Shown here: piece by piece, positions 1,248-16,072 of the stretch
Layout: each line of letters starts with the position of its first letter
Numbering within the stretch: position 1 is the first letter of the stretch
The notes under the pieces: model-generated
Database searches by the model: none
The model's input: only the letters and a program-made list of their open reading frames with translations
Told to the model about the DNA's origin: nothing
Program-made: the position numbers and the translations under genes
Source: Cereibacter sphaeroides 2.4.1
Lineage (GTDB): Bacteria; Pseudomonadota; Alphaproteobacteria; Rhodobacterales; Rhodobacteraceae
Assembly: GCF_000012905.2 (NCBI RefSeq)
Contig: NC_007493.2
Span: 210,001 to 242,000 of the forward strand
Length of the DNA stretch: 32,000 nt
Direction: 5' to 3'

Positions 1248-2201
1248 ATGTTCCGCCGCACAACCCTGTCCGCGGCCGCGGCCGCTGCCGTGCTGAGCCT
1301 TCAGCCGCAAGTAGCCGCCGCGCAGGAATTCATCAACGTCCTGACCGGGGGCACCTCGGGCGTCTACTATCCGCTGGGCGTGGGCCTGTCCGAAATCTAT
1401 GCCGAGAACATCGAAGGCGCGCGCACCCAGGTGCAGGCGACGAAGGCCTCGGTCGAGAACCTGAACCTGCTCGCGCAGCGCAAGGGCGAACTTGCCTTCG
1501 CCCTGGGCGATTCGGTGACGCTCGCCTGGGAAGGCAACGAGGAGGCGGGCTTCCCGCGCCCGCTGAAGAACCTGCGCGCCATCGCGGCCATCTATCCGAA
1601 CTATATCCAGATCGTGGCCGACGCCGCCTCGGGTGTCACGACGCTCGAGGATCTGAAGGGCAAGACGCTCTCGGTCGGCGCGCCCGCCTCGGGCACCGAG
1701 CTCAATGCCCGCGCCATCTTCGGTGCGGCGGGCATGAGCTACGAGGATCTCGCCAAGGTCGAATACCTGCCCTATGCGGAATCGGCCGAGCTCATCAAGA
1801 ACCGGCAGCTGCAGGCGACGCTGCAATCCTCGGGTCTGGGCGTGGCCTTCATCAAGGACCTCTCCTCGACCCACGACATCAACCTCGTGAGCATTCCGGC
1901 CGAGGTGGTCGAGAAGATCGGCGCGCCCTATCAGCCCGCGGTGATCCCGGCCGGCACCTATTCCGGGCAGGACACGGACGTGCCCACGGCGGCGGTGGGG
2001 AACCTTCTCGTGACGCATGAGGATGTGAGCGAGGAAACCGCCTATCAGATGACGAAGCTGATGTTCGAGAACCTCGACCGGCTGAAGTCGGCCCATGCGG
2101 CGGCGGGCAACATCAAGCCCGAGACGGCCATCGAGGCGCTGCCGATCCCGCTGCATCCGGGCGCGGAGAAATACTACCGCGAGATCGGTCTGATCCAGTA
2201 A
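1248..2201 (+). CDS. TAXI-family TRAP transporter solute-binding receptor
   Basis: ATG at 1248 preceded by GGGAGG (1235-1240). Signal peptide MFRRTTLSAAAAAAVLSLQPQVAAAQE. TAXI-like motifs LTGGTSGVYYPLG, NLRAIAAIYPNYIQIV, HPGAEKYYRE. The track ORF start at 1104 is probably too far upstream. Confidence 0.85.
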   Translation: MFRRTTLSAAAAAAVLSLQPQVAAAQEFINVLTGGTSGVYYPLGVGLSEIYAENIEGARTQVQATKASVENLNLLAQRKGELAFALGDSVTLAWEGNEEAGFPRPLKNLRAIAAIYPNYIQIVADAASGVTTLEDLKGKTLSVGAPASGTELNARAIFGAAGMSYEDLAKVEYLPYAESAELIKNRQLQATLQSSGLGVAFIKDLSSTHDINLVSIPAEVVEKIGAPYQPAVIPAGTYSGQDTDVPTAAVGNLLVTHEDVSEETAYQMTKLMFENLDRLKSAHAAAGNIKPETAIEALPIPLHPGAEKYYREIGLIQ

Positions 2202-2214
2202 CGGCATCTGCCGC

Positions 2215-2238
2215 GGCCCGGGCGGCATCGCCCGGGCC
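2215..2238 (+). terminator. Intercistronic GC hairpin (possible attenuator) between the receptor and permease genes
   Basis: GGCCCGGG-cggcatcg-CCCGGGCC followed by CTTTCC. Lies 14 nt after the receptor stop codon. Confidence 0.35.
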
Positions 2239-2304
2239 CTTTCCCGTCGCTCCGGTTCGAGGCTCGGGCCTCGCCGTCGCGGCCCCGTCCTTTCGGAGAC
2301 AGCC

Positions 2305-4422
2305 ATGTCCGCACCCTCTGCCGCCCCCGGGCCGGCCTCTTCCGCCGTTCATGCCCCCGATGTCCACGAGGAAGTCACCGAGGGCCTGCCGCCCGGCTTC
2401 GGCCCCGGCATCATGGGCAAGGTGGCCTTCTGGATCGCCGTCGCCTTCTCGCTCTTCCAGCTCTGGACCGCGGGCTACGGCACCCTGCCGAGCCAGGTCG
2501 TGCGGGCGATGCATGTGGGCTTCCTGCTGCTTCTCGGCTTCGGCCTCGTGGGCAACCTCCTCGCCAGGACCGCGGTCACGCGGGCAATCTTCTGGGGGCT
2601 CGGGCTGATCGGCTTCGGCACCGGGATCTACAACTGGGTGCTCTACGAGGAGCTGATCCGGCGCACGGGCTTTCTCACCCATGCCGATCTCGTGGTGGGC
2701 ACCGTGCTCGTGGTGCTGGTGTTCGAGGCCAGCCGCCGGCTGATGGGATGGCCGCTCGCCATCATCGCGGGCCTCTTCCTCGCCTACTGCTTTCTCGGCC
2801 AGCACATGCCGCCGCCCTTCATCCACCGCGGCTACGATTTCGAGCAGATCGTCGAGCATTTCGCCTTCGGCACCGAGGGGATCTACGGCACGCCGATCTA
2901 TGTGAGCTCGGCCTATATCTTCATCTTCGTGGTCTTCGCGGCCTTCCTCGAACGGGCGGGGATGCTGAACCTCTTCAACGATTTCGCGCTCGGCCTCGTG
3001 GGCGGCGTGCGCGGCGGGCCTGCACAGGTGGCGGTGCTTTCCTCGGCGCTGATGGGGACGATCTCGGGCTCGGGCGTGGCCAATGTGGTGGCCTCGGGCC
3101 AGTTCACCATCCCGATGATGAAGCGCTTCGGCTTCAAGCCCGCTTTCGCGGGCGGGGTCGAGGCCACGGCCTCGATGGGCGGGCAGATCATGCCGCCGGT
3201 GATGGGGGCCGTGGCCTTCATCATGGCCGAGACGCTGAACGTGCCCTATGCCGCCGTCGTGCAGGCCGCGATCCTGCCGGCCGTGCTCTATTTCGGCGTG
3301 GTGTTCTGGATGGTCTGGCTTCAGGCCGGGCGCGACGGTCTGCGCGGCCTGCCGCGGTCGGAGCTGCCGAACCCGTGGCATGCGGTGCGCGACCAGTGGC
3401 CGCTGATCCTGCCTCTGGCGGCGCTCGTCTATCTGCTCTTCGCGGGCTACACGCCGATCTTCGCCGGCACGATGGGCCTCGCGCTGGTGGCCGTGCTGAT
3501 CCTCGGCACGCCGCTTGCTGCCATGATCGGGCCCATGGCCTTCCGGCTCGTCTTCTGGGTTGCGCTGGGTCTCGCCTCCGCCGCCTTCCTGAAGCTCGGC
3601 GTCAACTTCCTCGTGCTGGTGATCGGCCTTCTCGTGCTGGCCTGCGCCCTCTTCAAGGGCGCGCGCCCGACCATCGGCATCCTCCGCGATGCTCTGGCGC
3701 AGGGTGCGCGCAACGCGCTGCCGGTGGGCATCGCCTGCGCCATCGTGGGCATCGTCATCGGTACGCTGACGCTGACGGGCATCGCCTCGACCTTCATCGG
3801 CGCGATCATCGCCATCGGGCGGGACAACCTGTTCCTGTCGCTGGTCCTCACCATGATCACCTGCCTCGTCCTCGGCATGGGGATCCCGACCATCCCGAAC
3901 TATATCATCACCTCCTCGCTCGCGGGGCCGGCGCTTCTCGATCTCGGCGTGCCGCTTCTCGTGAGCCACATGTTCGTCTTCTACTTCGGCATCATGGCGG
4001 ACCTCACCCCGCCGGTGGCGCTGGCCTGTTTCGCGGCCGGTCCCATCGCCAAGGCGCCGGGGCTGAAGATCTCGCTGCAGGCGGTGCGTCTGGCGGCCGC
4101 GGGCTTCGTGATCCCCTTCATGGCGGTCTACACGCCGTCGCTCATGCTGCAGGACGGAGGCGCCATCGCCGAGACCTGGGGCTACCCGGTCGAGGTGGTC
4201 TATATCTTCCTCAAGGCGGTGCTGGCCATCGGCCTATGGGGCGTGGCGGTCGTGGGGCAGCTCTTCGGGCGGGCGACGATGCTCGAGCGGGCGCTTGCGC
4301 TGGCGGCCGGCGTGTCGCTGGTCCTTGCCCTTCCGGCGACGGACGAGGTGGGCTTCGCCCTCGCGGTGGCGACGCTGCTCCTGCACTGGCTGCGCGTGCG
4401 GCGCGCGGCGCGGGCCGCATGA
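2305..4422 (+). CDS. TRAP transporter fused 4TM/12TM permease (TAXI-associated type)
   Basis: 705-aa highly hydrophobic ORF. ATG at 2305 with GGAGAC 5 nt upstream. Directly downstream of the TAXI receptor gene. Its stop overlaps the next start (ATGA). Confidence 0.85.
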   Translation: MSAPSAAPGPASSAVHAPDVHEEVTEGLPPGFGPGIMGKVAFWIAVAFSLFQLWTAGYGTLPSQVVRAMHVGFLLLLGFGLVGNLLARTAVTRAIFWGLGLIGFGTGIYNWVLYEELIRRTGFLTHADLVVGTVLVVLVFEASRRLMGWPLAIIAGLFLAYCFLGQHMPPPFIHRGYDFEQIVEHFAFGTEGIYGTPIYVSSAYIFIFVVFAAFLERAGMLNLFNDFALGLVGGVRGGPAQVAVLSSALMGTISGSGVANVVASGQFTIPMMKRFGFKPAFAGGVEATASMGGQIMPPVMGAVAFIMAETLNVPYAAVVQAAILPAVLYFGVVFWMVWLQAGRDGLRGLPRSELPNPWHAVRDQWPLILPLAALVYLLFAGYTPIFAGTMGLALVAVLILGTPLAAMIGPMAFRLVFWVALGLASAAFLKLGVNFLVLVIGLLVLACALFKGARPTIGILRDALAQGARNALPVGIACAIVGIVIGTLTLTGIASTFIGAIIAIGRDNLFLSLVLTMITCLVLGMGIPTIPNYIITSSLAGPALLDLGVPLLVSHMFVFYFGIMADLTPPVALACFAAGPIAKAPGLKISLQAVRLAAAGFVIPFMAVYTPSLMLQDGGAIAETWGYPVEVVYIFLKAVLAIGLWGVAVVGQLFGRATMLERALALAAGVSLVLALPATDEVGFALAVATLLLHWLRVRRAARAA

Positions 4423-5727: not shown

Positions 5728-5817
5728 TGGCGGAGACGAAGGGATTCGAACCCTCGAGACGGTTTCCCGCCTGCACCCTTAGCAGGGGTGTGCCTTCGAC
5801 CACTCGGCCACGTCTCC
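5728..5817 (-). tRNA. tRNA-Ser (anticodon GCU), type II with long variable arm, CCA encoded
   Basis: Reverse complement GGAGACGTGGCCGAGTGGTCGAAGGCACACCCCTGCTAAGGGTGCAGGCGGGAAACCGTCTCGAGGGTTCGAATCCCTTCGTCTCCGCCA. It has a 7-bp acceptor stem, anticodon loop CT-GCT-AA, a GGTTCGAATCC T-loop and a long extra arm. Confidence 0.93.
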
Positions 5818-6032
5818 GCCGACCCGTATAGGGGGCAAGGTTACGGAAAACAAGCGTCTTGTTGAGAGCCTGGGACCGCAGGCGCGTCGGCTCGCCTCGT
5901 CTGGATCTGGAGGTGCATCAGCGCAGAATCAGCAGTTGCCAGAGCGCGTTTTGACGGTCGCAGCCCGCGGCTCTTCTGACCGACAAGGCGGGCACCCTCT
6001 CAGATGTCGTCGTGGAATAAGCTGGGCGTCAG

Positions 6033-6230
6033 GTGCGCTCGATCCGCATTGGCTTCGTGACTGCCGTTCAGCATGCCGGCCTGACCCATGCCACCTCCCT
6101 TGTGCTGGGGCATACAGAAGCCGTTCACAATGAACGCAGCAGGCATCCCGATGCAAAGATCGCCAAGTTTCTCGGTTACTCAAGCTCGGCCATAACCGGG
6201 CGGACCTATGCCCGACGCTCGCCGAGCACC
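6033..6230 (+). pseudogene. Possible tyrosine-recombinase (integrase) C-terminal remnant
   Basis: AGLTHATSLVLGH...DAKIAKFLGYSSSAITGRTYARR resembles the box II region (HxLRHT...LGHSSxxxTxxY) of phage integrases. No intact upstream catalytic domain is present. Confidence 0.3.
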
Positions 6231-6364
6231 GGACCGATGGGAAGCACCCGGTTGTGGCCGCCTTCTGAGGCTTTGGTTCTTCGTCTGGCCAGCTGTCGTG
6301 ACTGACATCGTCTGTGGCGGATGGTGTTATGCGGCAAGAGAGTCTGGCGGGCATCAAGCGGTGA

Positions 6365-6690
6365 CGTCGCTGGTCGGATGCGGAGAAGCGGTCGATCCTG
6401 GCGGAGGTTGGTGTGAATGGGGCGTGGGTTGCAGATGTCGCCCGTCGTCATGACCTGACCCGGCAGCACATCTACCAGTGGCGGGCCGAGTTCCGGCGGC
6501 GGGGCGAAAGCCTGACGGAGGAGACCGGGTTCCTGCCGGTCGAGACGACATCCGAGAACTGCGTCCCGTCGGTTCCCGCGGCGACCATACCGGTCGAGGT
6601 CGTGCTCGTGAACGGCTGACGCCTGCGCGGGATCGAGGGTCTGTCGCCGGCCGCCTCGCGCAACTGATCCGTTTGCTGGAAGGCGCATGA
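6365..6690 (+). pseudogene. IS66-family accessory gene tnpA, disrupted (N-terminal stop and internal frameshift)
   Basis: RRWSDAEKRSILAEVGVNGAWVADVARRHDLTRQHIYQWRAEF is the typical IS66 TnpA HTH. A TGA sits directly upstream at 6362. The C-terminal LAQLIRLLEGA* is in another frame and ends in ATGA overlapping the tnpB start. Confidence 0.7.
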
Positions 6691-6749
6691 TCGGGCCTAG
6701 GAATGGCATGCGCGTGTTCCTCGCGGCAGGCACCTCGGACAGACCCTGA
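6687..6749 (+). pseudogene. IS66-family tnpB, N-terminal 20 codons only
   Basis: MIGPRNGMRVFLAAGTSD matches the conserved TnpB N-terminus (MIxxPxGxRVxLAxGxTD). It is then truncated at the junction with the IS5-type fragment. Confidence 0.55.
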
Positions 6750-7033
6750 TCAGCGGCACTCGCCGCGGGCTGACCCCGGCGCTGGCGAAGGCGCTCCGGC
6801 GGCGCAGCAGCATCGAGCCCGAGATCGGCCACATGAAGACCGACGGACGGCTCGTGCGCTGCTTTCTGAAAGGTGCACTCGGCGATGCGCTTTTCGCCGT
6901 CCTCTGCGGCTGCGGCCACAACATCCGCAAGATCCTCGCTCATCAACGGAGGCTTCTTGGAGCCGTCATCTCTATCGTCCTGGCGGTGCTCCGGAAGCAG
7001 CGAACCCAAGGTCACGGTCTTGCCGCGGCTTGA
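6740..7033 (+). pseudogene. IS5/IS1182-family DDE transposase, C-terminal fragment
   Basis: ISGTRRGLTPALAKALRRRSSIEPEIGHMKTDGRLVRCFLKGALGDALFAVLCGCGHNIRKIL is the conserved C-terminal signature of this family (RRRSxIEPxIGHxK...LKGxxGD). There is no N-terminal part. Confidence 0.7.
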
Positions 7034-7838
7034 TCGCGTTGTTCAGGCTGAACGAAGTAAGCCCTAAGAAGTCCTTGAATTTTAACGTATGTGATTGATC
7101 AACATAAGTGATTGATCCGTGTGGTGACCCCGGCAGGACCTCTGCAACCGCTGATTTTGCGGAGAAATTTCGGTAAATGGGTCTCCTCTAGCCCTGTGGG
7201 AGATCAATGACTTAAGGGGCGGGCTGTAAACGCCGGCTGGCCGCGGAGGCGCTGCGGCTTCGTCTGTTCCCCGTCCGCGCGTGCGCGCCGCTTGCCGGTC
7301 TTTCACCTCAGCCATATCCACTGGACTTCCAGATGGGTTGATCGGTCGCGGGAGGAGAAGACCCGCCTGTCCCAAGAGGTGCGTGCGCGCGAGAAGTGGA
7401 TCCGAGGTATTCCTCGGCACGCTTCAATATCGGGGGCGCACGCGAGCCGATCTGCCGGACGGCTGTTCCGGGCAGTTCGACTGGTCCTTCTACCGCTGGA
7501 TCAAAACACGCGGATCGCCAACCAAGCTCAGATCAAACGGCTTGTGGCTGGTGCGTCGAACGACAAGGTCATCTTCCGGCTGCGGAGCGCGAGCGAGGTC
7601 AGGATGTTCTTGGCGCGACTTGCTTTGAACTCAAGCACGCCCTCGTCCTGCCTGGAGCGCCCCTCGCGCTGAGGCGGTGAAGGTCTGAACCCAGGCCTTA
7701 TCAGCCCCTCGTAGTCAGCCCCAGGCCGACCTGCATGCCGAGGCGCGGAGGTACGAGATCAGCCCGAACCTGCCCATCACTATCATAGCGACTCGATGTC
7801 AAGCGCGCACGCGGTCCTGTACAGGCCGGTTCGGCCCC

Positions 7839-7868
7839 TTGAGAATCAAGCGGCTTCAAGACTACATA
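7839..7868 (+). promoter_or_regulatory. Putative sigma-70 promoter of the HD/NTase operon
   Basis: TTGAGA (7839-7844), 18-nt spacer, TACATA (7863-7868), ~48 nt upstream of the ATG at 7916. Confidence 0.25.
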
Positions 7869-7915
7869 AACAGTCTGAGACCTTCGGTGCTACATTATGT
7901 TGAGGTGCCTTGCAG

Positions 7916-9379
7916 ATGTCCGAGAGGAAGCCTACCCTGTGGTCGGAGAGTCGCCGTCCGCGTAAAGGTGAAGAAGAGGCTGGTGGCACTGAAGCTTCAG
8001 CTACCATTGATGAAGGCGACAAGCTTTCTTGGCGTTCTGTCTTCCAACGGGACTACGATCGACTTCTCTTCTCGACCCCGGTTCGCCGACTGTCTGACAA
8101 GACGCAGGTATGGCCGATGGACGAGAACGATGGCGTCCGTACGCGCCTGACCCACTCCCACGAAGTAGCTAACCTCGCCCGCTCCTTGGGGTCGAGGATT
8201 GCAACGCAGGAAGAGGGGTTGTTCAACGCTGACCTCCATCGCACGATTCAGCCAATTTTGTGGGCTATTGGCTTGGCGCACGACCTTGGGAACCCTCCGT
8301 TCGGGCACCAAGGTGAGGCTGCCATGGGGCGTTGGTTCAAGGATCGCGAAGCTTGGATATTCACACACGCTTCTGAAGAAGATGAAAAAGGTTTTGCTGA
8401 GCCGATACCTGAGAAACAGAGATTGGAGTTCACCAAGTTTGACGGAAACCCGCAAACTTTAAGACTTGTGACCCGGTTGCAAACTCATGCCCATGGCTTG
8501 GGCTTGGACCTCTCGGCAGCAACGCTCGCTGCCATGCTCAAATATCCTGTTTCTGCGGAGAACCGGAACAAGGACGTGCCTGCGCACAAGAAGGTTGGCT
8601 ACTTTGAAACCGAAAGAGATATTGTAAACTGGATTCGAGATGAGACAGGACTGAAGGAAGGGCAGCGACACCCTCTTACTTGGATCATGGAAGCGTGCGA
8701 CGATGTCGCTTACAGCATCTTGGATGTAGATGATGTGATGAAAAAAGGCATTGCCTCGCCTGAAGACATTCTGTCTCAGATGGGTGCCGAAGATCGTCTT
8801 AAAGATCATGCTTGCGTTGCGAAGATCAGAGAAGCTTTCAGGCGCGTGGATGAAGCAAAACACGGTGTGTTTGTGGCGCGCGATATCAAGATTGGTTACA
8901 TGAGGGCCTATTTGATGGAGGCGCTACTCGACGAAGCGGCTGCCAGCTTCATCGACAACGCAGCTGCCATTTTCGCTTTTGAAGGTGGGATGCTGCCAAT
9001 ATTGGAGGAGAGCGTCTTGTGCAATTTCCTCAAATCGGTTGCAAAGGATCACGCATTCTCCAATCCGGGAGTTTTGAAGTCGGAAGCAGTCGGCGCAGAA
9101 GCAATATCTCATATCATGTCCTTCTTCTGGGCTTCCATTAGAGATCGGGAGCACAATGACGACATCAAGTCGTGTCGCATGACCGCGGCATCAAAGTTTG
9201 CTTGGTCACTGGTAAGTCCGAACTACATCGAAGAGGCAGCGCGCTGCATTACAAAGCAGACGCCCCCGCAGCGGATCCGGTATGCTGAGATGCGCCTGCT
9301 TACTGACATGGTGTCTGGCATGACAGATTCTTTCGCAATGAAGCTCTGGGGTGACATTCGGGCGTTGCCGAAATGCTGA
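7916..9379 (+). CDS. dGTPase-family (Dgt-like) HD-domain deoxynucleoside triphosphate triphosphohydrolase
   Basis: ATG 7916 with GAGGTG 8 nt upstream (the track ORF starts at TTG 7910). Motifs FQRDYDRLLFSTPVRRLSDKTQV, RTRLTHSHEVANLARSLG, GLAHDLGNPPFGHQGE, ACDDVAYSILDVDD. Confidence 0.85.
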   Translation: MSERKPTLWSESRRPRKGEEEAGGTEASATIDEGDKLSWRSVFQRDYDRLLFSTPVRRLSDKTQVWPMDENDGVRTRLTHSHEVANLARSLGSRIATQEEGLFNADLHRTIQPILWAIGLAHDLGNPPFGHQGEAAMGRWFKDREAWIFTHASEEDEKGFAEPIPEKQRLEFTKFDGNPQTLRLVTRLQTHAHGLGLDLSAATLAAMLKYPVSAENRNKDVPAHKKVGYFETERDIVNWIRDETGLKEGQRHPLTWIMEACDDVAYSILDVDDVMKKGIASPEDILSQMGAEDRLKDHACVAKIREAFRRVDEAKHGVFVARDIKIGYMRAYLMEALLDEAAASFIDNAAAIFAFEGGMLPILEESVLCNFLKSVAKDHAFSNPGVLKSEAVGAEAISHIMSFFWASIRDREHNDDIKSCRMTAASKFAWSLVSPNYIEEAARCITKQTPPQRIRYAEMRLLTDMVSGMTDSFAMKLWGDIRALPKC

Positions 9380-10209
9380 TCGCTCGAGATGAAAGGATCC
9401 TCAAACGCAGAGTGGACGATTATCTATGGCGAGATAGGTCGAAGACTGTGCTGGCGCTTCGGCAGGTGCTAGTTGAAAAGTTTGGAGATTTCGAAAAAGT
9501 ATCGATTTTTGGCGGCATGATCCGCGACATCGCGCGCAATGGAAAGCGTGGATTTCGATCAGACGTTGATCTTGTTATTGACGCACCCGCTGCTGAGGTG
9601 AAGGACTTGGCTGACAGGTTGGCAGCAAAGCCGAACTTATTTGGCGGATTTGGGTACCGTACTGCGCGTTGGGAAATCGACTTTTGGGCTCTCGAGACCT
9701 CTTGGGCGCATAAGCATGGTCACATTAACGCCTCCTCTGTTGATGATCTGATGGAAGGGACATTCTTCGACTGGGATGCTGCGCATTATGATCTTAAGAG
9801 CCGTAAGCTTTACTTTCAGTCGGGATATTTGGAGAGGATCCGCAGCAGAACACTTGGCGTCAATCTTGTTGAAACGCCAAGTGCTGTGGGCAACGCCGTG
9901 CGCGCAGTGAGGCGTGTGTTGCTCTGGGATCTAAGAGCTTCTCCATGTCTTCTGGATTTCGTTGAGCATGTGGTGTCTAACGAGGGACTAGAGACGCTTT
10001 CGCGCTATGAAAAGCGAAAGCACCAAAGGTCCGTGTGCGAAGCTTACGTCGAGAGAAGCAGGTTGCTCGAAGCCCTTGCTGCAGGCAACAATAAAGTATA
10101 CTTTCTTCGCGGATCGCCAAGGCAGCTGGAGTTGCCGGGGATTTTCCTCTCCTCCACTCCGCGAGGATTAGCTAACAATTCGGAGCATCGGGCGAGTGCC
10201 CGCCTCTGA
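9373..10209 (+). CDS. Truncated CCA-adding/poly(A)-polymerase-family (Pol-beta fold) nucleotidyltransferase, head and neck only
   Basis: Start overlaps the upstream stop (ATGCTGA). IFGGMIRDIA...SDVDLVID matches GGxxRD...DxD. FFDWDAAHYDL and GNAVRAVRRV align with the RDFTxNA and DPLRxLRAxRF motifs. At 278 aa there are no body or tail domains. Confidence 0.65.
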   Translation: MLIARDERILKRRVDDYLWRDRSKTVLALRQVLVEKFGDFEKVSIFGGMIRDIARNGKRGFRSDVDLVIDAPAAEVKDLADRLAAKPNLFGGFGYRTARWEIDFWALETSWAHKHGHINASSVDDLMEGTFFDWDAAHYDLKSRKLYFQSGYLERIRSRTLGVNLVETPSAVGNAVRAVRRVLLWDLRASPCLLDFVEHVVSNEGLETLSRYEKRKHQRSVCEAYVERSRLLEALAAGNNKVYFLRGSPRQLELPGIFLSSTPRGLANNSEHRASARL

Positions 10210-11244
10210 GGCATAAGGATAAAAGCGGTCAAACTCTTCACTATAGATTTGCGTTATCGACTTTATATCTTCGCCGCTTAATCCGAGCTCTTGCCGCATG
10301 GCTTTAATGATGGTTGGTAGAACCGTTGGTCGATCATGCTCGAAGTCAAGGTTTGCCGGCTCTCTTGTCTTCCATCCGCGCGTGGCGATTTGCTGCCAGA
10401 GATATCGCGCCTGATTTGGCGTAATAATCTTCTCGCGCTGGATGGCGTAAAGAATGCCTTGCATTGAAACTCGCCATTCGGGTTTCAGTGCTGCTAGGAG
10501 CGCCAATGTAACCTTCCTTCCGCGAAGCGCGTCGTTAAGTTCTTTTCTCGGCAAAAGAAAGTTCGACGCAAAGAGGTTTGCTTCCTCTTCCATGTTTGGT
10601 GTCGGGAACCTGTGCATCACCAAGTGCCCTAGCTCGTGAGCAAGGGTGAAACGTACACGATCCGCCGGATGCGAAGGGTTAAGTAGGACGAGGGGTGGTC
10701 GTCCAGGTACGGCAAAAGTAACACCACTGACATTGGCGCCCCCGAAGTCAGAGTAGCCGACGACTACACCTGCTCGCTCGACAAGTCTGGTCAAGTTCTT
10801 GATTGGTCCCGATGGAATTTTCCAATGTCGCCGCAGTAGATCTGCAATATCCGCTGGAGAGCCGTATTGCTCCAGGTCGAAACGTCGGAGATCTAGAGAT
10901 GGCTTTAAGTCCATTTCCTCTAGGAAGCGGCGCAGATTAAACATGCGAACATTAAGCTCCGCCGTGATCATATCCAATTCGCGCGCAGTTACGTCAGAAT
11001 GCCCCCGCAGCATTGGATGAATGCTGACGGGCGGCCCGTAAACTGTATCGGGAAGGTCGAAGAATCCAGGAGGAAGATTAAAGGCTCTTGATGCCACCCG
11101 TATGCACTCATCGTCAACTTCGACAAGATCATTTTCCATACGAGAATATACGGCCTGAGCAACGCCTAGTTGCTCCGCCGTCTTTTTCTGCGTAAGTCCT
11201 CTGAGATGCCGCGCCAATCGCAGCATGTTTCCACGAGTAGCCAT
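10168..11244 (-). CDS. XRE-family HTH fused to an ImmA/IrrE (COG2856) zinc metallopeptidase
   Basis: N-terminal LRLARHLRGLTQKKTAEQLGVAQAVYSRMEND (HTH_3-like). Central RFTLAHELGHLVMH (HEXXH) followed by EEEANLFASNFLLP. 358 aa. Start lies 3 nt after the upstream stop. Confidence 0.8.
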   Translation of the reverse strand: MATRGNMLRLARHLRGLTQKKTAEQLGVAQAVYSRMENDLVEVDDECIRVASRAFNLPPGFFDLPDTVYGPPVSIHPMLRGHSDVTARELDMITAELNVRMFNLRRFLEEMDLKPSLDLRRFDLEQYGSPADIADLLRRHWKIPSGPIKNLTRLVERAGVVVGYSDFGGANVSGVTFAVPGRPPLVLLNPSHPADRVRFTLAHELGHLVMHRFPTPNMEEEANLFASNFLLPRKELNDALRGRKVTLALLAALKPEWRVSMQGILYAIQREKIITPNQARYLWQQIATRGWKTREPANLDFEHDRPTVLPTIIKAMRQELGLSGEDIKSITQIYSEEFDRFYPYASEAGTRPMLRIVS

Positions 11245-11247
11245 TAC

Positions 11248-11892
11248 TTAGTTGCCGTTGCTGTCAGAGGTGTCGTCGTCGCGCTGACGTTTGCGGAGAA
11301 CAACTAGTTCTTCGCTTGCTTCAGCCGCATCTTCCAGCGGCTCGGTCGACATCGGGAGGAGAGTAATGCCAGTGCCACTAGACGTGCTAGCAGCGCTCGG
11401 GACAATCTCATAGTGCCAAAGTAGCTCGTCACCGTCACGTGCTGCAACAACAACCCGCTCTATGCGGTCCTCGATCTCATTAGCGGTATAGAGCACTTCC
11501 ACCTTGGTGGCACTGGGAGGCATGCCCGGCAACTCGCTTTGAATGCTCACAAAATCCAAGACTGCTTGCGTGGGGTGATTGCGGCCCAGATTGTCTTCAT
11601 CACCCTTTTTAAACCGCGCTAGCACCACGTCCTTGAAGCAAAACTTTACTGTCTGCGCATTGGGATAAACCCGCACCTCTGGATCGGCGCTGAATTCGGT
11701 AATGGCATGTCGAGCGATAGCGTCAAAGACGTAGTTAGCGGTCGTTCGCGGATAAAGAACTGGCCCAGTACCACTCGATGCCATGCTGCGCTTAATAGAT
11801 GCCCACTCGCCGTAACCTTGCTCTATGACGCGCAGGATACGATCATGGTACGGGTTCAAGTGCTCCCTAACCTCATCTTCACCGTACTGCAC
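11248..11892 (-). CDS. Hypothetical protein (214 aa), first gene of the ImmA-fusion operon; acidic, serine-rich C-terminal tail
   Basis: GTG start with AGGAAG 6 nt upstream and a near-consensus promoter further upstream. No motif I can recognise. Same low-GC composition as its partner. Confidence 0.6.
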   Translation of the reverse strand: MQYGEDEVREHLNPYHDRILRVIEQGYGEWASIKRSMASSGTGPVLYPRTTANYVFDAIARHAITEFSADPEVRVYPNAQTVKFCFKDVVLARFKKGDEDNLGRNHPTQAVLDFVSIQSELPGMPPSATKVEVLYTANEIEDRIERVVVAARDGDELLWHYEIVPSAASTSSGTGITLLPMSTEPLEDAAEASEELVVLRKRQRDDDTSDSNGN

Positions 11893-11924
11893 GTGCTTCT
11901 TCCTATTACTGATGGATCTAGGTC

Positions 11925-11953
11925 ATCATAGGTGCCGCGTTTTGCAAATTCAA
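11925..11953 (-). promoter_or_regulatory. Near-consensus sigma-70 promoter driving the 214-aa/ImmA operon
   Basis: On the minus strand: TTGAAT, 17-nt spacer, TATGAT. The -10 element ends ~32 nt upstream of the GTG at 11892. Confidence 0.5.
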
Positions 11954-12073
11954 GATAAATTATTCAGTTCGTATTCTGACGCGTCCGGCTTGGGAGCTAC
12001 GCAAGCCAGATGAGACGTGCTGCTGTACCGAGCGTCACGTCCGCAACATGTGCATGGCGGTCCTAGGGGCGTG

Positions 12074-14671: not shown

Positions 14672-15670
14672 ATGGACCTCGATGATCTATACCGCCTTCT
14701 GCGTGTATCGCACGTGCAGGCTCAGGGCATCGTCGATACCATCCGGGACCCGCTGCTCGTCCTCGCAGGCGATCTGACGGTCATCAGCGCGAACCCGGCC
14801 TTCTACCGGACCTTTGCGACCGACCGGGACAGCACCATCGGCCGCCCGCTCTACGACCTCGGTAACGGCCAGTGGAACATTCCCGAACTGCGCATGCTGC
14901 TCGAGAACGTGATCCCGAAAAGCGCTTCTATCATGGATTTCGAGGTGCAGGCAGGATTTCCGGAGGTGGGCCTGCGGACCATGCTGATCAGCGCGCAACG
15001 CCTGATCCACCCGGACAATGGGCAGCGTGTCCTCCTCCTCTCGATGGTGGATGCGACGGCCCGGCGTCAGATGGAGGCCGCGAAGGACATCCTGATCAAC
15101 GAGCTCGATCACCGCATCAAGAACCTGATGTCGGTGACACAGGCTCTGACCCGACAGACGGCCGTCGAAGGCAGAAGTGCCGGCGAATATCGCACCGCGC
15201 TCCTCGGACGGTTCGATGCTCTGGCGCGATCACTCGAAGTGGCGTCGCACAAGCAGTCGTCGCAGCTGCGGGACCTGGCCGTCGCCGTGATGGAGCCATA
15301 TCTGGAGGCGGCATCCGCCGTTGTCATCGCGGAAGGGCCGGCCGTCCGGCTCTCCCCTTCGCAGGCCACCCCGCTTGGCCTCGTTCTTCACGAGCTGGGG
15401 ACGAATGCCACAAAGTACGGAGCCCTGTCCACGTCGAGTGGAACCGTGACACTGGACTGGAAGGTCGTCTCGGACGGGGAAGGCCGGAAAAAAGTGCATT
15501 TGCGATGGCAGGAACGAGGGGGGCCGAAGGTGGCGGCACCCTCGAAGACCGGCTTCGGCACCCGTCTCATCAAATTTACCACCGAATTCGAACTGCGAGG
15601 TTCCGCGGAACTTTCCTATGAGCCTGATGGTTTCGTGGCGAAGTTGAGCTTTCCGAGCCAGAACCCCTGA
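14672..15670 (+). CDS. Soluble PAS-domain HWE/HisKA_2-type histidine kinase
   Basis: AAGGAA RBS. PAS-like N-terminus (IRDPLLVLAGDLTVISANPAFYRTF). H-box ELDHRIKNLMSV. N-box HELGTNATKYGAL. WQERGGP...GFGTRLI. No transmembrane segment. Confidence 0.85.
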   Translation: MDLDDLYRLLRVSHVQAQGIVDTIRDPLLVLAGDLTVISANPAFYRTFATDRDSTIGRPLYDLGNGQWNIPELRMLLENVIPKSASIMDFEVQAGFPEVGLRTMLISAQRLIHPDNGQRVLLLSMVDATARRQMEAAKDILINELDHRIKNLMSVTQALTRQTAVEGRSAGEYRTALLGRFDALARSLEVASHKQSSQLRDLAVAVMEPYLEAASAVVIAEGPAVRLSPSQATPLGLVLHELGTNATKYGALSTSSGTVTLDWKVVSDGEGRKKVHLRWQERGGPKVAAPSKTGFGTRLIKFTTEFELRGSAELSYEPDGFVAKLSFPSQNP

Positions 15671-15682
15671 CCCGAGTATACC

Positions 15683-16072
15683 ATGCCGAACGAGCCGGCC
15701 GAGCCTCGTCCGAAGCAGGGCCTGCTCGTCCTTGTTGTCGAGGACGAATTCCTGACCGCCATCGACCTGCAGTCGATGCTGGAGGATGTGGGCTACGCCG
15801 TACTCGGGCCGGTTGGCACGGTTGATGACGCGCTCAGGATCCTGGACGAGACGCGCCCGGACGTGGTGTCGCTCGATCTAAACTTGCGAGGGCAATCCTC
15901 CATTCCGGTGGCCGAGAAACTCCGCGAGCTCGAGGTTCCGTTTATCGTCACTTCAGCCTACAGGACCTTCGACTTTCCCGGCGGCGAGATTCTGACTGGC
16001 GTCACAGCGATCGGGAAGCCCGTCCACCCGCGCATGCTGATCGAGGCCCTGAGCCAGGCGTGCGGATCATGA
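15683..16072 (+). CDS. Single-domain response regulator (receiver only)
   Basis: VLVVEDEFL, DVVSLDLNL (phospho-acceptor Asp region), FIVTSAY, GKP. 129 aa with no output domain. Confidence 0.8.
   Translation: MPNEPAEPRPKQGLLVLVVEDEFLTAIDLQSMLEDVGYAVLGPVGTVDDALRILDETRPDVVSLDLNLRGQSSIPVAEKLRELEVPFIVTSAYRTFDFPGGEILTGVTAIGKPVHPRMLIEALSQACGS

Follow-up and report, generated by a model that had tools for sequence, protein, structure and literature searches.

A conserved two-gene cassette of a Cereibacter sphaeroides prophage, probably a Rosmer-like toxin-antitoxin module with a new partner family

What is the role of two tightly spaced genes on the reverse strand of a 32,000-nucleotide (nt) stretch of Cereibacter sphaeroides 2.4.1 (RefSeq assembly GCF_000012905.2, contig NC_007493.2, positions 210,001 to 242,000; hereafter the window, whose own numbering is used throughout)? 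The first open reading frame (ORF; 11892-11248, GTG start) encodes a protein of 214 amino acids (aa), and the second (11244-10168, ATG start) a 358-aa protein in which an XRE-type helix-turn-helix (HTH) domain is fused to an M78 (ImmA/IrrE-type, COG2856) zinc peptidase. In a preliminary description the 214-aa protein was proposed to be an effector or toxin controlled by the fusion protein; alternatively, the fusion was proposed to be a switch for the whole island, including a facing operon with an HD-domain gene and a nucleotidyltransferase-like gene. From the comparisons reported here, the cassette is read, with a probability of roughly 0.6, as an autoregulated Rosmer-type toxin-antitoxin or abortive-infection module that a prophage carries as cargo; by virtue of the RosmerTA architecture, the 214-aa protein is assigned the role of effector and the 358-aa protein those of autorepressor and neutraliser. 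The proposed partnership is supported by every comparison made, the fusion being of the RmrA type and coupled to its partner at about 70 loci, and the concept itself is not new.

Seen from the 214-aa protein, an RmrA gene lies directly downstream at all 43 loci (32 from representative genomes, three from phage or plasmid records, two from further contigs, and six from viral contigs). It is on the same strand in 32 of the 32 representative-genome loci, and an RmrA homologue is likewise found downstream in Acinetobacter phage ABMM1 (22% identity), on a conjugative Rhizobium plasmid, and on a small Polaromonas plasmid. The survey from the RmrA side covered 80 viral loci, down to 29% identity, one of which was truncated; at 74 of the 79 informative loci a member of the 214-aa family is encoded directly upstream, and at three more the upstream gene encodes a remote relative that shares the F-x-F-K-K...N..T signature. 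Many of the viral loci are copies of one Acinetobacter prophage, and de-replication leaves 70 pairs. The stop-to-start gap is between -20 and +31 nt in 69 of these (mostly 2-6 nt), in 68 RmrA is the better conserved of the two (median identity to the window proteins 53% for RmrA vs 40% for the partner), and the identities of the two partners co-vary (r = 0.92). The pairing thus appears near-obligate, and the suggestion that the 214-aa ORF might not be conserved with COG2856 partners is clearly contradicted by some 70 non-redundant paired loci. The neighbourhoods of the cassette are mutually unrelated (metabolic, restriction-modification, helicase, and phage genes, plasmids, prophage ends); it follows that the two genes move together as one unit. 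In its small size, its two-gene autonomy, and its patchy occurrence on mobile elements the cassette agrees with classical type II toxin-antitoxin modules. The 22%-identical pair of Acinetobacter phage vB_AbaM_ABMM1 (L033, 3986-5691), found also at loci L070-L094, belongs to a very common Acinetobacter baumannii prophage; each of the two proteins occurs on at least 1000 contigs.

Within the window the two ORFs are in the same frame and are joined by TAA-GTA-ATG, with 3 nt from stop to start. Read-through of this in-frame junction into a single fusion protein was considered and rejected, since gap lengths vary among homologues. The ribosome-binding site AGGAAG (11899-11904, reverse strand) was read from the sequence 6 nt ahead of the GTG. 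In public assemblies, gene callers begin the second ORF at Met7, which gives 352 aa; homologues align from Met1, and M1 and G5 are invariant, so that the 358-aa form appears to be the better start. The ORFs, their 3-nt spacing, and the HTH and HELGH domains were all as given in the preliminary description, which had also pointed to a TTGAAT-17-TATGAT promoter and a ribosome-binding site for the first gene (both are present, the promoter being conserved across homologous loci) and to a 214-aa protein with no recognisable motif and an acidic, Ser-rich tail, an account with which the searches below agree.

The 358-aa protein is composed of an N-terminal XRE-type HTH domain (residues 5-60, 11065-11232, reverse strand; Pfam HTH_3, residues 8-61, E 1e-8), a linker, the M78 zinc peptidase domain (10444-10779, reverse strand; Pfam Peptidase_M78, residues 156-267, E 4e-21), and, according to the secondary structure of the model, a C-terminal all-helical domain (residues ~268-358 and stop, 10168-10443, reverse strand). 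HELGH is found at residues 203-207 (nt 10638-10624), with E219 as third ligand; H203, E204, H207, and E219 are invariant in 47 homologues, so that the zinc site is intact. All 14 PADLOC RmrA models match the protein, the best with E 4e-52 and 175 bits (residues 6-340 vs profile positions 5-331 of 363); a score of about 175 bits over 330 residues is only moderate for RmrA and points to a separate RmrA clade. Phage family phrog_2439 also matches (E 5e-76), as does, below its cutoff, the NCBIfam model of the spr1629 antitoxin (E 6e-28). In the AlphaFold2 model (predicted local distance difference test, pLDDT, 88; predicted template modelling score 0.88) the peptidase domain resembles CapP (7t5t) and IrrE/PprI (3dti, 8sln) with a Foldseek probability of 1.0, and the HTH domain the DNA-binding domains of DdrO, ImmR, CapH, and P22 c2; the superpositions cover ~160-175 residues and leave the C-terminal domain unmatched. 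The extreme C-terminus, RPxLRIV (residues 352-358, nt 10168-10185), is conserved, with P352 and R355 invariant, and is predicted to form a short strand.

Between the HTH and peptidase domains runs a linker with the motif VYGPPVS(I/V)HxMxRxK, present in the window as VYGPPVSIHPMLRGH (residues 68-82, 10999-11043, reverse strand). Residues G70, P72, S74, H76, and R80 do not vary even among homologues of 39% identity. The flexible loop at residues 78-82 has pLDDT <50 and is the least confident internal stretch of the model, values as low being found elsewhere only at the C-terminal residues 347-350. The linker consensus MLRGK resembles EL/RGK, the site at which IrrE cuts DdrO (PMC6868357), and the linker is putatively a site of internal cleavage or a pseudo-substrate.

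The 214-aa protein falls into no family of Pfam, NCBIfam, or PADLOC (PADLOC v2.0.0 models, up to E 1); its single family match is phrog_15813 (E 3e-8), of unassigned function. The family is large: 171 matches were found by word-indexed search and 1341 representative clusters at 50% identity, from alpha-, beta-, and gammaproteobacteria and their phages, by profile search; most of the 150 best matches listed are stand-alone proteins of ~200 aa. The AlphaFold2 model (pLDDT 82.5 overall, >90 over most of the core) has a folded core (residues 1-165, 11398-11892, reverse strand) of two long helices, three strands, a short helix, and three strands, followed by a tail (residues 166-214 and stop, 11248-11397, reverse strand) that is disordered from about residue 166-170 (pLDDT 48-59), acidic (net charge -6), and Ser-rich. 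The core is acidic as well (isoelectric point ~5), and there is no transmembrane segment (maximum Kyte-Doolittle value in a 19-residue window 0.89); the protein is predicted to be a soluble alpha/beta protein. Among 102 diverse members, R49, A52, R93, K95, K96, N105, T108, and W159 are conserved in at least 85%, and the conserved positions include no acidic residue and no histidine; the hallmark of the family is F-(R/L)-F-K-K-x3-4-G-x2-N-x2-T. The tails are otherwise variable and share a hydrophobic-basic motif, [LIVF][LIVFT]x[PL][KR], in 37 of the 102 (4.2 in shuffles), represented in the window protein by ELVVLRKR.

No known toxin superfamily was found for the 214-aa protein in Pfam, NCBIfam, PADLOC, PDB, BFVD, or a RelE profile comparison, and the family profile had no match among PDB sequences. 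Several candidates were set aside. The top Foldseek matches of the model, tRNA-splicing endonuclease and ATV ORF273, were discarded at a TM-score of about 0.19; kinship with RelE/ParE, prompted by the helix-hairpin and three-strand start of the model, was given a probability of 2% by hhalign against RelE; and a lone RmrT match at 0.024 among the family members, as well as Cas8a matches in four of 53 close members (PADLOC/Pfam scans), were treated as noise.

Is the cassette under its own control? A consensus scan placed the promoter at 11925-11953 on the reverse strand (-35 TTGAAT, 11953-11948; -10 TATGAT, 11930-11925), with nine of 12 consensus positions matched. Promoter-like sites of this quality are not above chance in the region (three found vs 2.6 expected); in 28 of 33 homologous loci the -35 region and the adjoining TTTGCAAAA keep both their place and their sequence, and on this conservation the promoter is very likely real. 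The region 5' of the first gene retains aATAGaAnnTGaATAnTTTnnGTTGAtTTTgCAaAa, the intergenic DNA being otherwise not alignable between loci, and the 14-nt core TTGAtTTTgCAaAa is found with at most four mismatches in 28 of the 33, mostly at a distance of 41-59 nt to the start codon; within the window this core occurs once. Across the wider family two direct repeats, GGAATAtttt, stand 11 bp apart immediately before the -35; of 82 non-redundant upstream regions, 36 have the pattern RWATA-N6-RWATA (1.4 in shuffles), which clusters 76-87 nt ahead of the start codon. The window has a tandem direct repeat GAATA-N6-GAATA of 11-bp period (11961-11976, reverse strand), a candidate operator for the HTH domain; after these repeats come the -35 and the 8-bp palindrome TTTGCAAA (11948-11941, reverse strand), which overlaps the -35 and the spacer. 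No second copy of this operator-like element was found in the 32-kb window, and nothing like it in the promoter region at 7680-7915. A cis-element conserved alongside a highly conserved HTH appears best explained by autoregulation.

An ORF of ~80 aa, absent from the window, ends ~70-90 nt upstream of the 214-aa homologue at between about a quarter and a third of the genome loci (L006, L011, L012, L014, L020, L021, and L027; also L042, 7688-7927). Its C-terminus reads ...GRRGGKARAESLTPERRAEIARKAAxxRW, its stop codon falls within the first repeat of the operator-like element, and it matches no NCBIfam family.

Which known systems does the cassette resemble? Toxin partners of HTH-COG2856 proteins were predicted in 2009 (PMC2701414) and such pairs were later validated as RosmerTA anti-phage systems (10.1101/2022.05.11.491447; PMC10440598). 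In RosmerTA (RmrT/RmrA) systems, which protect against phages, an RmrA deletion proved impossible to transform (10.1101/2022.05.11.491447); the partners of RmrA are diverse toxins (PMC10440598). The window cassette shares with RosmerTA a protein of ~360 aa that joins an XRE HTH to an M78 zinc peptidase and matches RmrA profiles along its full length, a two-gene operon with a partner of unassigned function, and a prophage or defence-island site beside a dGTPase-type gene. It differs in that the partner and its relatives match no PADLOC RmrT profile and that the partner is fixed, not swapped, within the RmrA clade of the window; defence and toxicity are here predictions. The modules of Makarova et al. 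2009 (PMC2701414) are likewise operons of a toxin and a fused HTH-COG2856 (Xre-COG2856) protein on phages, prophages, and plasmids; the window partner, however, is neither PIN nor RelE (RelE profile probability 2%).

The pair RmrT(D5)/RmrA(D25) of Gordonia phage Kita is a validated toxin-antitoxin system with narrow-spectrum anti-phage defence (PMC10440598) and, like the window pair, is phage-borne and has an M78-type antitoxin and a toxin without detectable family. The Kita toxin is membrane-targeted and depolarises cells, whereas the 214-aa protein has no hydrophobic segment; the native Kita operon has the antitoxin before the toxin (according to the vector description), whereas the window cassette is toxin first. 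In RipA/RipB (Spr1630/Spr1629) of Streptococcus pneumoniae, also an operon of a toxin (RipA) and an HTH-M78 antitoxin, RipB needs ClpX to counter RipA and is essential only because of RipA, for which action on the sliding clamp and dependence on ClpX are reported (10.1101/2025.09.02.673660). The spr1629 model matches the 358-aa protein below cutoff; nothing links the 214-aa protein to DnaN. With IrrE/DdrO, ImmA/ImmR, and CapP/CapH the 358-aa protein shares the M78 peptidase fold and zinc site and the XRE DNA-binding domain, and its linker MLRG(K) resembles the EL/RGK site of DdrO. In contrast to those systems, repressor and protease are one polypeptide, no separate small XRE gene is present within the cassette, the regulated gene is upstream in the same operon, and no further operator copies occur in the window. 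Among the entries of NetFlax Dataset S1 are an A. baumannii pair (D25:M62, WP_000658761.1/WP_001095788.1) and Afipia pairs (D25:D41), in toxin-antitoxin order and with the same antitoxin node; these may already be members of the 214-aa family, as unvalidated predictions, and the A. baumannii entry may correspond to the pair of the common A. baumannii prophage.

How would such a module work? The HTH domain would bind the tandem GAATA repeats and the TTTGCAAA palindrome and repress the operon, and the toxin-first order with translational coupling would set the effector:RmrA ratio. RmrA would also keep the effector harmless post-translationally, the likeliest route being action of the peptidase cleft on the hydrophobic-basic motif at the C-terminus of the effector. 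Upon infection or DNA damage RmrA would be inactivated, possibly via cleavage at the invariant linker, whereupon the effector would be released and over-produced and the cell would stop. The effector would act through a metal-independent Arg/Lys/Asn/Thr/Trp pocket on a phosphate-bearing target (nucleic acid or nucleotide) and not on the membrane. Neutralisation through the peptidase is suggested by the intact zinc site, the tail motif, and the reported ClpX dependence of RipB; self-inactivation upon a signal by the linker motif, as with the CapP and IrrE relatives; and a phosphate-bearing target rather than the membrane by the conserved Arg/Lys/Asn/Thr/Trp set in a soluble protein. We infer these three steps from the features named. 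A stricter form, in which RmrA is a proteolytic antitoxin that docks on and cuts the tail motif of the effector rather than sequestering it, cleaves itself at the VYGPPVSxHxMxRxK linker upon infection or DNA damage, and restrains a metal-independent enzyme with an R49/R93/K95/K96/N105/T108/W159 pocket and a fold without solved relative, is speculative and decidedly unlikely to hold in full.

Where does the cassette sit? The four genes at 7.9-11.9 kb form a block of 52% G+C in a background of ~70%. In near-identical public contigs the order is phage tail genes, holin, Dam methylase, M15 endolysin, a 160-aa protein, and then the pair; beyond it come the convergent 278-aa and HD genes and insertion-sequence remnants. 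A tRNA-Ser(GCT) gene is present at 5728-5817 (reverse strand). From this gene order and the tRNA-Ser gene, the pair is taken to be cargo at the attachment-site end of a prophage. After the tRNA-Ser, positions 5900-7700 hold overlapping ORFs, one with a transposase-like HTH in related contigs; the tRNA-Ser and this region are probably the attachment site and a decayed island or prophage edge. The prophage also encodes, in the interval from the Dam methylase to the holin, an HWE-type histidine kinase (PAS_4 and HWE_HK) and a single-domain response regulator (14672-16072, forward strand); these genes are missing from the otherwise near-identical genome L037 and look like a signalling cargo (moron) cassette.

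The facing operon (7910-10209, forward strand) consists of overlapping genes for a 489-aa HD protein and a 278-aa protein. The PADLOC dGTPase model (E 3e-68) and models of dGTP triphosphohydrolase recognise the HD protein, whose NCBIfam scores as an anti-phage dGTPase stay under the cutoffs. A nucleotidyltransferase-like motif, GG..RD...DxD, is seen in the 278-aa protein, which has more than 239 homologues and matches no family in Pfam, PADLOC, or NCBIfam. The two genes are adjacent and overlapping again in Alcaligenes, Agrobacterium (A. vitis), and Pseudomonas, with no HTH-M78 gene near them in these genera, and may be a two-component variant of dGTPase defence. All four genes occur together in one relative, viral contig L044, with proteins ~80-92% identical. 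At their 3' ends (10168-10209) the convergent genes for the 358-aa and 278-aa proteins share 42 nt; as 278-aa homologues are 250-266 aa long and L044 has no overlap, this looks like a local C-terminal extension. Since the HD/278-aa pair occurs without HTH-M78 and the four-gene set was found only in L044, the two operons appear to be independent modules that travel together in this lineage.

These results bear directly on whether the fusion also controls the dGTPase-like/278-aa operon opposite, which would make one island-wide system of all four genes. The shared low-G+C block (52% vs ~70%), the joint retention in L044, and the 42-nt overlap of the RmrA and 278-aa 3' ends are all compatible with it. 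At the other 42 loci, however, no HD or 278-aa genes are nearby; the HD/278-aa pair is conserved alone in three distant genera without RmrA; the convergent genes do not overlap in L044; and the operator-like element, a single copy at the promoter of the cassette itself, is missing from the 7680-7915 promoter region. This second proposal of the preliminary description is thus not supported and extremely improbable. Control of lysogeny or of the mobile element, as by ImmR/ImmA, with the fusion governing prophage induction, excision, or superinfection immunity and the 214-aa protein as anti-repressor, sensor, or co-factor, is quite improbable in turn: the domains are those of ImmR plus ImmA, and the pair lies inside a (pro)phage both in the window and in Acinetobacter phage ABMM1, in the latter near repressor and antirepressor genes, yet the same cassette is found among metabolic genes with no phage genes nearby and on the conjugative Rhizobium and small Polaromonas plasmids, the operator-like element is nowhere else in the prophage part of the window, and the pair sits at the lysis and attachment-site end, where cargo sits, rather than in any lysogeny module.

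A switch of the CapH/CapP kind deserves more weight, although it too is unlikely. Here the fusion would be a self-cleaving repressor sensitive to damage or infection, and the 214-aa protein an induced defence or accessory factor, without post-translational restraint and not a toxin. The closest solved structures, CapP and IrrE, are indeed proteases that relieve XRE repression upon DNA damage (PMC6868357), the invariant flexible linker resembles the DdrO cleavage site, a conserved operator-like element stands at the promoter of the module itself, and the 214-aa protein has no toxin-like fold. The regulator genes of CapH/CapP and IrrE/DdrO, however, are upstream of or apart from their targets, whereas here the regulator is second and translationally coupled, the layout of toxin-antitoxin stoichiometry; RmrA-type proteins are antitoxins by experiment (an RmrA deletion was untransformable, RipB is essential because of RipA); and the 214-aa family is never without its partner in the loci sampled from the 214-aa side.

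The Rosmer-like toxin-antitoxin reading is preferred on these grounds, and several points weigh against it. The toxicity of the 214-aa protein is a prediction; no toxin fold is recognisable, Foldseek searches of PDB and BFVD with its model having yielded no match with E below 0.06; and PADLOC RmrT profiles gave no consistent match in the window protein or in 53 close, 50 distant, and eight further members. The acidic core would be unusual for a toxin that targets nucleic acid, direct repeats would be an unusual operator for an XRE dimer, and the putative cleavage site draws on the resemblance of short motifs. Two of the viral RmrA loci (L104 and L115, identical contigs) have no partner of the 214-aa family. 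The RmrA relative on these contigs (about 2000-3000) is 38% identical and is preceded by a different ORF of ~125 aa; this fits an orphan antitoxin or a partner swap, and equally a plain regulator.

What, then, does the locus add? Systems of this kind are known and have been catalogued widely, and the pairing is a new partner family within the known Rosmer type. The new parts are an effector family absent from Pfam and PADLOC v2 and without fold relative, a dedicated RmrA clade, and an operator-like element; PADLOC v2.0.0 models catch only the RmrA partner of this family and not the effector. If the effector were just another growth-arrest protein, the finding would extend a known family in a routine way. 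Many surveys of defence systems count Rosmer systems while their mechanism is unexplained and their toxins are heterogeneous, and the short conserved motifs in two disordered regions of this pair suggest where the peptidase acts.

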